Part shown: positions 15,177 through 20,496 of the stretch, in pieces
Position numbering within the stretch: position 1 is the first letter of the stretch
Layout of the letters: the number at the start of each line of letters is the position of its first letter
NCBI RefSeq assembly: GCF_003018255.1
Contig: NZ_CP027440.1
Origin: Escherichia coli
GTDB lineage: Bacteria; Pseudomonadota; Gammaproteobacteria; Enterobacterales; Enterobacteriaceae
Direction: 5' to 3' (one strand)
Length of the DNA: 64,000 nucleotides
The notes under the pieces: generated by a model
What the model was told of the DNA's origin: nothing
The model's database searches: none
The model's input: only the letters and a program-made list of their open reading frames with translations
Translations under genes and position numbers: made by a program

Positions 15177-15419
15177 CTAGCGCCTGCCATACCCCACCAT
15201 AAAGCGAATCATCAAGCCACAAGCCGGGGCAAGAAACATAAATATCCCCGTCACTAGTTCATTACCGCCAGTTAACCACATGGTGAAGTAGTAAATGAGT
15301 GCAGCGAGGATCACCATGCCGAAGAAAGAAGAGACCGCCGAGACCACGTTCAGTACCTGACCGATGTATCCGCTTACGCAGACAATACACAGGGCGAGAA
15401 ACATCCATAAATAAATCAT
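15177..15419 (-). CDS. yfdY: Small inner-membrane protein (two predicted TM helices)
   Basis: 80-aa hydrophobic ORF convergent with ypdI. Confidence 0.75.
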   Translation of the reverse strand: MIYLWMFLALCIVCVSGYIGQVLNVVSAVSSFFGMVILAALIYYFTMWLTGGNELVTGIFMFLAPACGLMIRFMVGYGRR

Positions 15420-15771
15420 AGCTCAACCTCCTGCCGCGCTAAAAAACCTGTAACTTCAGTCACTTTAATAGTAAGACAATCCTTAACCTCTGGCAATTTT
15501 TGCTAAGCATCAATGAAAACAGCACGTTAAATGCAACGCTATTGCGTGCGGAAAATTTTTTACTTTGCACGATTAATAATCAGTAGCTGAAAGCAGTCAG
15601 CCAGTGATAAAGTAGAGCCACCGCATTCATGCTCCTCGTGGTTATGTCCTGACTAGTCTTTACACTCTTTACAGGAACCATTGTCGTACATGATGGCCCA
15701 ACCAATTGAGTGTACCGCTGTCGACATGGAATCTTCTGCGATACAACAATTCGTATCTACAGAAGGTAACT

Positions 15772-16692
15772 ATGTTTCCACAATGCAAATTTTCCCGCGA
15801 GTTTCTACATCCTCGCTACTGGCTCACATGGTTTGGGCTTGGTGTACTCTGGCTTTGGGTACAGCTTCCTTATCCTGTTCTCTGCTTTCTCGGCACGCGT
15901 ATTGGCGCAATGGCGCGACCATTCCTGAAACGGCGTGAATCTATCGCCCGTAAAAACCTGGAACTTTGTTTCCCACAGCATTCTGCGGAAGAACGCGAGA
16001 AGATGATTGCCGAAAACTTTCGTTCACTCGGCATGGCGCTGGTAGAAACCGGCATGGCGTGGTTCTGGCCCGACAGTCGCGTACGTAAATGGTTTGATGT
16101 TGAAGGGTTGGATAACCTTAAACGCGCACAAATGCAAAATCGCGGCGTAATGGTTGTCGGCGTCCATTTTATGTCGCTGGAACTGGGCGGCCGCGTGATG
16201 GGACTGTGCCAACCAATGATGGCTACCTATCGTCCACATAATAATCAGCTGATGGAATGGGTGCAGACCCGTGGGCGCATGCGCTCTAACAAAGCGATGA
16301 TCGGCAGAAATAATCTGCGCGGCATTGTCGGTGCACTGAAGAAAGGTGAAGCGGTATGGTTTGCTCCCGATCAGGATTATGGTCGTAAAGGCAGCTCCTT
16401 CGCGCCGTTCTTTGCGGTGGAAAATGTCGCCACAACCAATGGTACGTATGTCCTTTCACGTCTCTCTGGCGCAGCCATGTTAACCGTAACGATGGTAAGA
16501 AAAGCAGATTACAGCGGATATCGTTTGTACATCACCCCAGAGATGGAAGGCTACCCGGCAGATGAAAATCAAGCCGCTGCCTATATGAACAAGATTATCG
16601 AAAAAGAGATCATGCGCGCACCGGAGCAGTACCTCTGGATCCACCGTCGCTTTAAAACGCGCCCGGTGGGAGAATCGTCGCTATACATTTAA
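15772..16692 (+). CDS. lpxP: Lipid A biosynthesis palmitoleoyl-ACP acyltransferase
   Basis: LpxL/HtrB-family ORF; start chosen at MFPQCKFSREFLHPRYW (306 aa) rather than upstream ATG at 15706. Confidence 0.9.
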   Translation: MFPQCKFSREFLHPRYWLTWFGLGVLWLWVQLPYPVLCFLGTRIGAMARPFLKRRESIARKNLELCFPQHSAEEREKMIAENFRSLGMALVETGMAWFWPDSRVRKWFDVEGLDNLKRAQMQNRGVMVVGVHFMSLELGGRVMGLCQPMMATYRPHNNQLMEWVQTRGRMRSNKAMIGRNNLRGIVGALKKGEAVWFAPDQDYGRKGSSFAPFFAVENVATTNGTYVLSRLSGAAMLTVTMVRKADYSGYRLYITPEMEGYPADENQAAAYMNKIIEKEIMRAPEQYLWIHRRFKTRPVGESSLYI

Positions 16693-16724
16693 CAAACTGC
16701 TCTTACTCTTTCCCTCCTCAAATC

Positions 16725-16760
16725 AGCCATAATAACCTCATGGTTTTTATGGCTTTTTTC
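16725..16760 (+). terminator. Putative intrinsic terminator after lpxP
   Basis: Stem AGCCATAA / TTATGGCT followed by TTTTTT. Confidence 0.6.
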
Positions 16761-17048
16761 TTAAGGTTTTTTCCTTCGCTGAATCTCTAATTATTACCGT
16801 CAGAAATTAAACTGTCGCCGATATGAGACACCTGTAAGTTACTAAAAGTAAATAAGAAAATGCCTCTTGTCTCGTTTCAGTTTTAGGCGTACATTAGCGC
16901 CGTCTGGAGCAGTTTAGCTCAGAATTCTGGGGTGATGCCCACGGTAAAATACAGGACTTTTAAGGTCGTTTTGCCCGGTGTCAACTCACTGTATCAGGTG
17001 TAATGAAGTCATTCAGGCGTAACAGTAATTACGCGGAGAGATGTAAAG

Positions 17049-17120
17049 TGAAATATTTCTTTATGGGCATTTCTTTTATGGTCATCGTTTGGGCCGGTAC
17101 TTTTGCCCTGATGATCTAAA
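17049..17120 (+). CDS. ypdK: Small hydrophobic membrane protein, 23 aa
   Basis: GTG-initiated ORF (V/M)KYFFMGISFMVIVWAGTFALMI, matching my recollection of the ypdK product; not in the supplied ORF track because of its length. Confidence 0.6.
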
Positions 17121-17183
17121 AGCAAACTGTGCAATGAAAAACAGGAGCCATCTGGCTCCTGTTTGCATTTCTGGCGATGGTGT

Positions 17184-18422
17184 TTATTCCGCGTTTTCGT
17201 GAATATGTTTGCTGCTGGCGGGTAGTAAACCGTCGGCACGGAACATCGCTTTAATTCCACGAATCGCCTGACGAATACGGTCGCGGTTTTCAATCAGTGC
17301 AAAGCGAACATGCGTGTCGCCGTAGTCGCCAAAGCCAATCCCCGGCGAGACACAGACCTTCGCTTCGTTCAGCAGCTTCTTGGCAAATTCCAGCGAGCCC
17401 ATGGCAGCATACGGTTCCGGGATTTTCGCCCAGACATACATCGAAGCCTTCGGCATTTCGACCATCCAGCCCGCTTCATGCAGCCCTTTTACCAGTACAT
17501 CACGGCGGCGTTTGTACTGTTCAGCAATGTCGCGCACGCACTGTTGATCGCCCTCCAGCGCCGCAATCGCTGCCACCTGCAACGGCGTAAAGGTGCCGTA
17601 ATCGTGATAGCTTTTAATACGTGCCAGCGCGCTGACCAGCGTTTTGTTGCCAACCATAAAGCCGATACGCCAGCCCGCCATGTTGTAGCTTTTCGACAGC
17701 GTAAAGAACTCGACCGCCACATCGCGTGCACCTGGCACCTGCATGATTGACGGCGCTTTCCAGCCATCGTAGACGATATCGGCATAGGCCAGGTCATGGA
17801 CCACCAGCACATCGTAGCGTTTCGCCAGCGCCACAACCTTTTCGAAGAACTCCAGCTCCACGCATTGCGCGGTTGGATTCGACGGGAAGCCGAGGATCAT
17901 CATCTTCGGTTTCGGATAACTTTCGCGAATGGCGCGTTCCAGTTCGTTGAAGAAATCGACACCTTCCACCAGCGGCACTGAGCGTACCTGCGCCCCGGCA
18001 ATCACCGCGCCGTAAATATGAATCGGGTAGCTTGGATTAGGCACCAGTACAGTGTCACCATGATCCAGCGTCGCCAGCATCAGATGCGCCAGTCCCTCTT
18101 TCGAACCAATAGTGACGATGGCTTCTGATTCCGGGTCGATCTCAATGCCGTAGCGATCCTGATACCAGCGGGAAATGGCGCGACGTAACCGCGGAATGCC
18201 GCGTGACGTGGAGTAACCATGCGTGTCCGGGCGCTGGGCCACCGTACATAATTTTTCGACGATATGCGGCGGAGTCGCACCGTCCGGGTTACCCATACTG
18301 AAATCAATAATATCTTCGCCGCGCCGACGCGCAGCCATTTTCAGTTCAGCGGTAATGTTAAAAACATAGGGCGGGAGACGATCAATGCGCGTAAAGCGAC
18401 GTTCAGGGCGAGTGTCAGCCAT
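17184..18422 (-). CDS. alaC: Glutamate-pyruvate aminotransferase (class I PLP aminotransferase)
   Basis: 412-aa ORF with PLP-lysine context ([15 protein letters not shown]). Confidence 0.93.
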
Positions 18423-18798
18423 AATTTCCTCAGATTAACGTTAGCGCCCGGACCGTCCGAGCGACGCTGCCACGATGGTGGCTGTTTTGAAAATAGCCTG
18501 ATTAATTTCTGTCTGTCCAGCGTTTTAGAACATTTTTATTAATGACGTTAAATGAGGAACTCTGCTTTAAAAACAGGAAATTTATCTGCGCTAACAAGAA
18601 AATTACCACCCATTTTATTAACATAATAATTTCAATAAATTTACTAACCAGAAGTGCATTATCAAGAGATGCATTGCTAATACACCATTTATCTATCAAT
18701 CCCCTTTTAAAATTGTGGTTTTTCCTCAAAAACGGCCTGCTGGTCATCAGCCTTCAGGTTACCTATCATAGAGGTTTAATCCTTATTCAGAGTCACCC

Positions 18799-20496
18799 GT
18801 GCACGAAATATTCAACATGCTGCTGGCGGTCTTCGATCGGGCAGCGTTAATGCTTATCTGCCTGTTCTTTCTCATCCGTATCCGTCTGTTTCGCGAACTG
18901 TTGCACAAGTCGGCGCACTCCCCAAAAGAGTTGCTCGCCGTTACCGCCATTTTCTCGCTGTTCGCCCTGTTCAGCACCTGGTCCGGCGTTCCTGTAGAAG
19001 GTTCGCTGGTGAACGTACGTATTATCGCGGTGATGTCAGGCGGGATTCTGTTTGGCCCGTGGGTGGGCATCATTACCGGCGTGATTGCGGGTATTCACCG
19101 TTATTTAATTGATATCGGTGGCGTGACGGCGATCCCCTGCTTTATCACCAGCATTCTGGCGGGTTGTATATCGGGCTGGATCAACCTGAAAATCCCCAAA
19201 GCACAGCGCTGGCGCGTCGGTATTCTCGGCGGCATGTTGTGTGAAACGTTGACCATGATTCTGGTGATTGTCTGGGCACCAACTACCGCATTGGGGATCG
19301 ATATCGTCTCTAAAATCGGGATTCCAATGATCCTCGGCAGCGTCTGTATCGGCTTTATTGTGTTGCTGGTACAAAGTGTTGAGGGCGAAAAAGAGGCCAG
19401 CGCCGCGCGGCAGGCCAAGCTGGCGCTGGATATCGCCAACAAAACGCTGCCGCTGTTTCGCCATGTCAATAGCGAGTCATTACGCAAGGTCTGCGAAATT
19501 ATCCGCGATGACATTCACGCTGACGCGGTGGCAATCACCAATACCGATCATGTGCTGGCCTACGTTGGCGTGGGTGAACATAACTATCAGAATGGCGATG
19601 ACTTCATTAGCCCGACTACCCGCCAGGCGATGAATTATGGAAAAATCATCATTAAAAACAATGATGAAGCCCACCGCACACCAGAGATTCATTCCATGCT
19701 GGTGATCCCATTGTGGGAGAAAGGCGTTGTGACCGGAACGCTGAAAATTTACTACTGCCACGCGCATCAGATAACCTCGTCATTACAGGAAATGGCGGTC
19801 GGTCTGTCACAAATCATCTCCACGCAACTGGAAGTTTCGCGCGCTGAGCAGCTGCGTGAAATGGCAAATAAGGCAGAGCTTCGCGCCCTGCAAAGCAAAA
19901 TTAATCCCCATTTCCTGTTTAACGCTTTGAACGCTATTTCATCGTCAATCCGTCTGAATCCGGATACCGCTCGCCAGCTGATCTTTAATCTGTCGCGTTA
20001 TCTGCGCTATAACATTGAATTAAAAGACGATGAGCAAATCGATATCAAAAAAGAGCTGTATCAAATTAAAGACTATATTGCCATTGAGCAGGCCCGCTTT
20101 GGCGACAAGCTGACGGTTATCTATGATATTGATGAAGAGGTGAATTGCTGCATTCCCAGCCTGCTGATCCAGCCGTTGGTGGAAAACGCCATTGTCCACG
20201 GTATCCAGCCTTGCAAAGGTAAAGGCGTTGTCACCATCAGCGTTGCAGAGTGCGGTAATCGGGTACGCATTGCGGTGCGGGATACCGGGCACGGCATCGA
20301 TCCAAAGGTGATTGAGCGGGTCGAAGCGAACGAAATGCCGGGCAATAAAATTGGCCTGCTGAATGTCCATCATCGCGTGAAGTTATTGTATGGCGAGGGG
20401 CTGCATATCCGCCGCCTGGAACCAGGAACGGAAATTGCGTTTTACATTCCTAACCAACGCACCCCTGTCGCCTCACAGGCTACGTTATTGCTTTGA
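18799..20496 (+). CDS. ypdA: LytS-type sensor histidine kinase
   Basis: 565-aa ORF; N-terminal multi-TM domain, GAF-like middle, His-kinase motif [10 protein letters not shown] and ATPase domain; a GTG at 18796 could be the true start. Confidence 0.9.

Follow-up and report, generated by a model that had tools for sequence, protein, structure and literature searches.

The 491-bp spacer between lpxP and alaC in the window (the whole 64,000-nt stretch of DNA analysed here) is best read as the lpxP terminator followed by a self-contained, single-gene unit for ypdK, the product of which would serve as a packing accessory or regulatory helix in the membrane; we put the probability of this reading as a whole at roughly 85%. 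The lpxP gene occupies 15772–16692 on the plus strand and alaC occupies 18422–17184 on the minus strand, and the boundaries that an earlier note on this DNA gave for the spacer, 16693–17183, are correct, with only its length of 490 bp requiring adjustment to 491 bp. The same note described a GTG-initiated ORF of 23 codons, which is indeed present, albeit one base from the position given for it: the sequence places it at 17048–17119 on the plus strand, rather than at 17049–17120, as GTG plus 22 sense codons and a TAA stop, encoding VKYFFMGISFMVIVWAGTFALMI. As ypdK is already annotated and has been reported experimentally (Hemm and colleagues reportedly detected the epitope-tagged protein), our finding adds no new gene. 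What is new relative to existing knowledge of YpdK is the anatomy of the promoter and leader, the finding that the gene goes with alaC and not with lpxP, and its unchanging GTG start. The resulting use is modest, in that the regulatory anatomy of ypdK (a predicted start near 16902 with a promoter and an operator-like repeat ahead of it, three helices in the leader, and the invariant GTG) can now be put to experimental test.

The identity of the ORF is supported by several lines of annotation. RefSeq names it ypdK, with locus tags b4680 in K-12 MG1655 and KQ220_RS13150 in E. coli strain CFIAFB20140388 (the queried DNA is 100% identical to the latter strain and approximately 98% identical to K-12), and it occupies the same genomic place as b4680, between lpxP and alaC and running towards the latter. 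The NCBIfam equivalog model NF033437 ("YpdK") scores the peptide at 57.5 bits against a cutoff of 30, with residues 1–23 falling on profile positions 1–23. A megablast search with 16600–17300 finds matches at no less than 95% identity in 5,422 of 5,426 complete E. coli genomes, and a ypdK feature is carried by every one among the matches listed. The exact peptide and its Pantoea, Serratia, and Enterobacter-like variants are named "membrane protein YpdK" in NCBI and UniRef; Pfam contains no model for the peptide, and the PDB no chain matching it. In the literature, PMC3009722 counts ypdK among the 18 new small membrane proteins of Hemm et al. 2008, and refers to its product as a putative single-transmembrane peptide. 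Both the name ypdK and the description as a small membrane protein with a single helix, which the earlier note had put forward from the letters alone, agree with the public annotation and with that paper, and the strong hydrophobicity of the peptide (GRAVY 1.73) is in keeping with the latter description. The note's further remark that proteins of this type often modulate larger membrane complexes is a general one.

Other ORFs of 20–38 codons can be found in the spacer on both strands, and thus a 23-codon frame is on its own within chance expectation; it is the cross-species conservation, which carries a coding signature, that raises this ORF above chance level. We searched for the peptide at alaC loci from 80 species, all of them chosen for holding alaC and taken with flanks of 4 kb, of which 79 are assessable (one contig ends too early). 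An intact ypdK is located immediately downstream of alaC, and convergent to it, in 74 of the 79, with orthologues of 23–24 aa spanning the Enterobacteriaceae, Erwiniaceae, and Yersiniaceae. One further locus, from an assembly of 'Candidatus Pantoea haifensis' (L062, 5296–5444), carries a frameshifted copy, and ypdK is missing from the vicinity of alaC in four representative genomes, those of Serratia marcescens, Erwinia endophytica, E. piriflorinigrans, and Brenneria roseae (L064, L067, L081, and L082). Across the orthologues, variation tracks the wobble position (entropies of 0.59, 0.19, and 1.21 at codon positions 1, 2, and 3), mean pN/pS is 0.27 in the ypdK frame compared with 1.2 and 2.1 in the two other frames, and an identical protein occurs in 11 species despite one to four silent differences. 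ypdK is a protein-coding gene under purifying selection.

The start codon (17048–17050) is GTG in 74 of 74 intact orthologues and is never swapped for ATG, a change for which a single transition would suffice. Such invariance points to selection favouring either a weak start or the sequence around it, AGUGAAAUA; together with the operator-like repeat and a buried Shine-Dalgarno-like sequence, both described below, it is among the oddities of this locus. Between the Shine-Dalgarno sequence and the GTG, an out-of-frame ATG is followed directly by TAA, forming a start-stop at 17041–17046, and in most other Enterobacteriaceae the equivalent ATG, 7 nt before the GTG, opens an overlapping frame of 26 codons. 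We considered the overlapping +2 frame as a gene in its own right: no stop interrupts it in any of the 65 distinct coding sequences, yet its pN/pS of 2.1 marks it as noncoding.

At the level of gene neighbourhood, ypdK travels with alaC and not with lpxP. The latter is the upstream neighbour of ypdK in only 20 loci, and elsewhere its place is taken by more than 20 different genes in either orientation (75 species). Because the upstream neighbour varies while alaC stays constant, we regard ypdK as attached to alaC; the stop-to-stop distance between the two has a median of 55 nt. Their synteny may reflect mere proximity rather than a shared function. Of 82 loci, 65 have ypdA on the far side of alaC and divergent from it. 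YpdA was rejected as an obligate partner or regulator of ypdK, given that ypdK and its upstream block persist in several loci that lack ypdA, such as that of Salmonella arizonae; the same role for YpdC finds no support in our loci, the 4-kb flanks of which are too short for reliable scoring of ypdC. Nor is there a co-directional gene downstream of ypdK of the sort expected for a leader peptide or attenuator, as what comes after the ORF is a terminator and the convergent alaC.

The unit is delimited by two intrinsic terminators. On its upstream side, the lpxP terminator (16725–16762, plus strand) is an inverted repeat comprising a hairpin at 16725–16754 and a following T-run, with a fold z of −4.4. 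On its downstream side, a conserved bidirectional terminator with perfect 12-nt arms (17139–17164) is common to ypdK on the plus strand and alaC on the minus strand; it has U-runs on both sides, and its fold z values are −4.1 (plus) and −3.2 (minus). A stable hairpin is also found in the ypdK–alaC intergenic region of other species, with a median MFE of −22 kcal/mol. Within the approximately 355 bp between lpxP and ypdK, neither RefSeq K-12 nor the 100%-identical strain has any annotated feature. To this extent the description of the rest of the spacer as unassigned holds for current annotation, while the roughly 290 bp to which it referred can now be assigned to the lpxP terminator, a regulatory block, a conserved promoter, and a leader.

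The promoter assignment is based on a conservation profile and alignment of 75 sequences. Across these, the block cTTGTc, 17 nt, GTAnATTAGCGC is conserved at 0.9 or above in three families. In the window, the block comprises a putative −35 hexamer, TTGTCT, at 16867–16872 on the plus strand (TTGTCA in many species; column conservation 0.7–0.9), a putative −10 hexamer, TACATT, at 16890–16895, and a G+C-rich discriminator, AGCGCC, at 16896–16901, with GTAnATTAGC conserved at 0.9 or above in the three families. We read the block as a candidate sigma70-type promoter with a predicted start near 16902, because it is kept despite the turnover of upstream genes, because an array boundary falls beside it, and because a 5′ hairpin occurs near the predicted +1. 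In this strain the hexamers agree with the consensus at only 8 of 12 positions and are thus weak; a simple scan, which needs 9, does not list them for that reason. The array boundary comes from a published tiling-array study, which gives a plus-strand transcript at U00096.2 2494795–2494997; because the spacer is colinear with that of K-12 (nine substitutions, no indels), these coordinates convert to 16900–17102, such that the boundary is two bases from the predicted start at 16902, which is NC_000913.3 2496775. The earlier note had made its proposal depend in part on a discrete transcript in the spacer, and this study reports one on the plus strand. The start near 16902 is predicted from conservation combined with this one low-resolution array boundary. 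ypdK is its own transcription unit, in which the promoter block stays in place while the upstream genes change.

Some features of 16860–16901 resemble promoters of the rrn P1 type, namely A-tracts upstream, GCGCC as the discriminator, and, in many species, a −35 of the CCTCTTGTCA type (the comparison being with rrnB P1), whereas the −10 of ypdK is TACATT and its spacer is 17 nt. By analogy, the resemblance hints at growth-rate or ppGpp control.

Further upstream, a block at 16775–16862 on the plus strand (approximately −127 to −40) is conserved in the core Enterobacteriaceae only, and is presumed to be a regulator-binding region. It contains the motifs GTCGCTnAAT and ATTTATTAC, an inverted repeat, and UP-element-like A-tracts (16845–16862). 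The operator-like inverted repeat, TGTCGCC-N-(C)GACA at 16813–16830, has its centre some 81 bp ahead of the predicted start and occurs in 39 of the 75 species, all of them core Enterobacteriaceae, with a perfect form, GTGTCG-N8-CGACAC, in many. Within the 64,000-nt window there is no convincing second copy of the repeat beyond chance. To our knowledge, and as compared by eye, it fits none of CRP, LexA, PhoB, CpxR, GlpR, and EvgA.

An alternative account of 16775–16830 is that this stretch holds no regulator site for ypdK, and instead constitutes a minus-strand promoter for an antisense RNA directed into the 3′ end of lpxP. Such an RNA has a historical counterpart in Tpke70, a 436-nt minus-strand sRNA candidate (approximately 16321–16756) that is antisense to the 3′ half and terminator of lpxP; it is said to originate with Rivas and colleagues in 2001. 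Most of Tpke70 is inside lpxP, and it covers only the first 64 bp of the spacer (16693–16756, minus strand). A promoter scan does return a suitable site, with a −35 of GCGACA at 16818–16813 and a −10 of AATAAT at 16795–16790 (9 of 12 matches), both hexamers fall within conserved sub-blocks, and Tpke70 was formerly annotated from about 16756. One such site is nonetheless what shuffled sequence yields (1.3 expected), and the −10 reads AATAAA or TAATAA in most other genera, having lost its final T. The block is moreover conserved where lpxP is not the neighbour and where an antisense RNA would thus have no target, conservation ends about 10 nt past the putative minus-strand start, and the current K-12 annotation (NC_000913.3) no longer includes Tpke70. 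With the site at chance level, its −10 not kept, and the block independent of lpxP, we consider the minus-strand promoter distinctly unlikely, and we prefer a regulator site acting on ypdK as the reading of the block. We note in passing that a 2018 study (PMC6172242) still employed Tpke70 as an sRNA, and that the sequence given for it in supplement file 3 of that study corresponds, in reverse complement, to the terminator and 3′ coding region of lpxP; the ends of Tpke70 are loosely defined, and it is unrelated to ypdK.

Between the predicted start and the GTG is a predicted leader of 146 nt (16902–17047, plus strand), in line with an array transcript that runs from 16900. In other species, the leader length ranges from 36 to 183 nt and its middle is poorly conserved. 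In the window sequence, the leader folds into a 5′-terminal stem-loop at 16903–16923, and a hairpin beginning no more than 7 nt from the predicted +1 is present in 56 of 67 distinct leaders even as their sequences differ. Two additional helices, assessed within the Enterobacteriaceae by RNAalifold and pair counts on an alignment of 39 leaders from that family, show covariation. Helix A pairs 16929–16938 (GGGGUGAUGC) with 16978–16987 (96.9% of cells paired; compensatory changes in seven of nine pairs), and helix B pairs GCGUAA at 17017–17022 with UUACGC at 17029–17034 (93.1% of cells paired; compensatory changes in five of six pairs). Jointly, 95.4% of cells are paired, with compensatory changes in 12 of 15 pairs; values this high arise in none of 500 shuffles, and when partners are slid as a control, 28%–52% of cells pair. 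Helix B directly abuts the real Shine-Dalgarno sequence, GGAGAG at 17035–17040 on the plus strand; the spacing to the GTG is 9 nt from the end of the GGAG core and 7 nt from the end of the full hexamer. The core does not vary among the 39 Enterobacteriaceae leaders, GGAG or AGGAG is found in nearly all of 76 loci, and a Shine-Dalgarno sequence of the GGAG type accompanies all 74 intact orthologues.

Helix A encloses a variable insert, about 33–40 nt of which has been lost in L003 (5363–5487), the species-representative genome of E. coli, and in L012 and L013, with both strands of the helix kept; since the interior is deleted in some genomes, it is dispensable. The 5′ strand of helix A also contains, at 16929–16936, a Shine-Dalgarno-like sequence of 8 nt nearly complementary to the 3′ end of 16S rRNA (GAGGUGAU in most species, GGGGUGAU here), with no start codon at a usable distance from it. 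Three other features of the leader region turned out to be of narrow distribution or without consensus support. A 22-codon uORF at 16935–17003 ends in TAATG, its stop overlapping an ATG at 17003 from which the ypdK frame would be read as a 38-aa form (17003–17119); as conserved features, both the uORF and this ATG were rejected, being confined to Escherichia, with unrelated uORFs or none in other genera. A hairpin between the Shine-Dalgarno sequence and codons 7–10, predicted for E. coli, was likewise set aside because the consensus over 74 species does not support it.

The leader structure may stabilize the mRNA or tune its translation, and the helices may be stabilizing rather than regulatory. 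A more far-reaching interpretation is that the leader is an undescribed cis-regulatory RNA which, in concert with the GTG and a protein bound at the operator-like repeat, gates a micro-protein tied to the alaC/ypdAB pyruvate–alanine node. We regard this as unlikely; were it true, YpdK could modulate a membrane transporter or sensor of the pyruvate–alanine pathway.

Eight residues (M1, Y3, M6, G7, S9, G17, T18, and F19) do not vary among 42 distinct YpdK sequences, and three more (K2, W15, and M22) hardly do. In total, 11 of the 23 residues are thus fixed or nearly fixed over three families, and they are spread around the whole helix rather than along one face. The single charged residue of the peptide is K2, which by the positive-inside rule probably faces the cytoplasm and would place the N-terminus there. 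Since half of the residues are fixed, on all faces of the helix, we infer tight packing against a larger inner-membrane protein or against other copies of YpdK; YpdK most likely serves a larger membrane protein as a packed accessory or regulatory subunit, or else forms a homo-oligomer. The same constraint argues for a specific protein partner and marks the residues to choose for mutation.

E. coli has several small single-helix subunits that are accessory to membrane complexes, including CydX/AppX, KdpF, AcrZ, MgtS, and PmrR. YpdK resembles them in size class (20–50 aa), in consisting of a single hydrophobic helix, and in the conservation of specific helix residues. Most of their genes, however, are located in or beside the operon of the partner, or the partner is experimentally known, whereas ypdK is monocistronic and its sole constant neighbour, alaC, encodes a cytoplasmic aminotransferase.

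Assembled into a working sequence of events, these elements would operate as follows. A regulatory block restricted to the Enterobacteriaceae, carrying the operator-like repeat and A-tracts, would precede and act on a sigma70-type promoter with a G+C-rich discriminator, from which transcription would begin at about 16902. In the 146-nt leader so produced, the 5′ stem-loop would probably protect the 5′ end of the mRNA, and would be followed by the two covarying helices, the second of which would sit against the Shine-Dalgarno sequence. Translation would then proceed from the invariant GTG through 23 codons, and transcription would end at the terminator common with the convergent alaC. The product, essentially one transmembrane helix, would act by packing, in an accessory or regulatory role.

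A very short hydrophobic peptide behind a long structured leader is also what would be expected of a type I toxin in the manner of Ibs, TisB, DinQ, Ldr, or Hok, with the leader silencing translation until stress. The modest UV induction seen on tiling arrays (log2 1.06) is in line with such a role, and the conserved weak GTG would be compatible with a need for low expression. Typical type I toxins are patchy in distribution, multi-copy, and fast-evolving; YpdK, in contrast, is single-copy, strictly syntenic (74 of 79 species), and constrained at 11 of its 23 positions across families. No antitoxin RNA, antisense or adjacent, is apparent: at the sequence level, neither strand gave a match to Rfam, and conservation revealed no minus-strand element across ypdK. 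There is furthermore no LexA box, by eye, near the promoter, and no order-wide helix that sequesters the Shine-Dalgarno sequence. Given a slowly evolving, syntenic gene in single copy and no visible antitoxin RNA, we judge a toxin to be very unlikely, and retain the packed accessory or regulatory helix as the preferred reading of YpdK.

It could further be proposed that the ypdK transcript of approximately 265 nt acts mainly as an RNA, either as a dual-function base-pairing RNA like SgrS/SgrT or AzuCR, or as an antisense or transcription-interference partner of alaC, and that the peptide is secondary. The leader structure is conserved and is not represented in Rfam (a search of 15300–18900 with Rfam 15 gave three chance-level hits only, with E-values of 0.15–3.4 and scores far below gathering thresholds, and a tRNA scan of the spacer returned nothing real), the transcript ends in a stable terminator hairpin, and the convergence with alaC is tight in almost all species. 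Selection, however, is plainly on the protein, as seen from the wobble variation, the pN/pS of 0.27, and the identical peptides maintained despite silent changes, and an RNA as the main actor is for this reason highly improbable. Neither the poorly conserved middle of the leader, with its length range of 36–183 nt, nor the interrupted U-tract past the terminator on the ypdK side (UUUGCAUUUCU), which would not make a typical Hfq-binding tail, fits the proposal. That the ORF is a chance open frame from which no protein is made, as the abundance of 20–38-codon ORFs on both strands of the spacer might suggest, is barely credible in view of its coding signature, its conservation over 74 species, the curated NCBIfam model, and the report of Hemm et al. 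2008 as cited in PMC3009722.

As a final observation, a rearrangement hot spot adjoins the ypdK promoter on its upstream side, as indicated by the more than 20 neighbour genes encountered there in 75 species. The distance between lpxP and ypdK is itself variable, with approximately 640 bp more in Citrobacter than in E. coli, and in an O26:H11 strain a 102.6-kb Stx2a prophage has been described in the 'mlaA-ypdK intergenic region' (PMC6667211).
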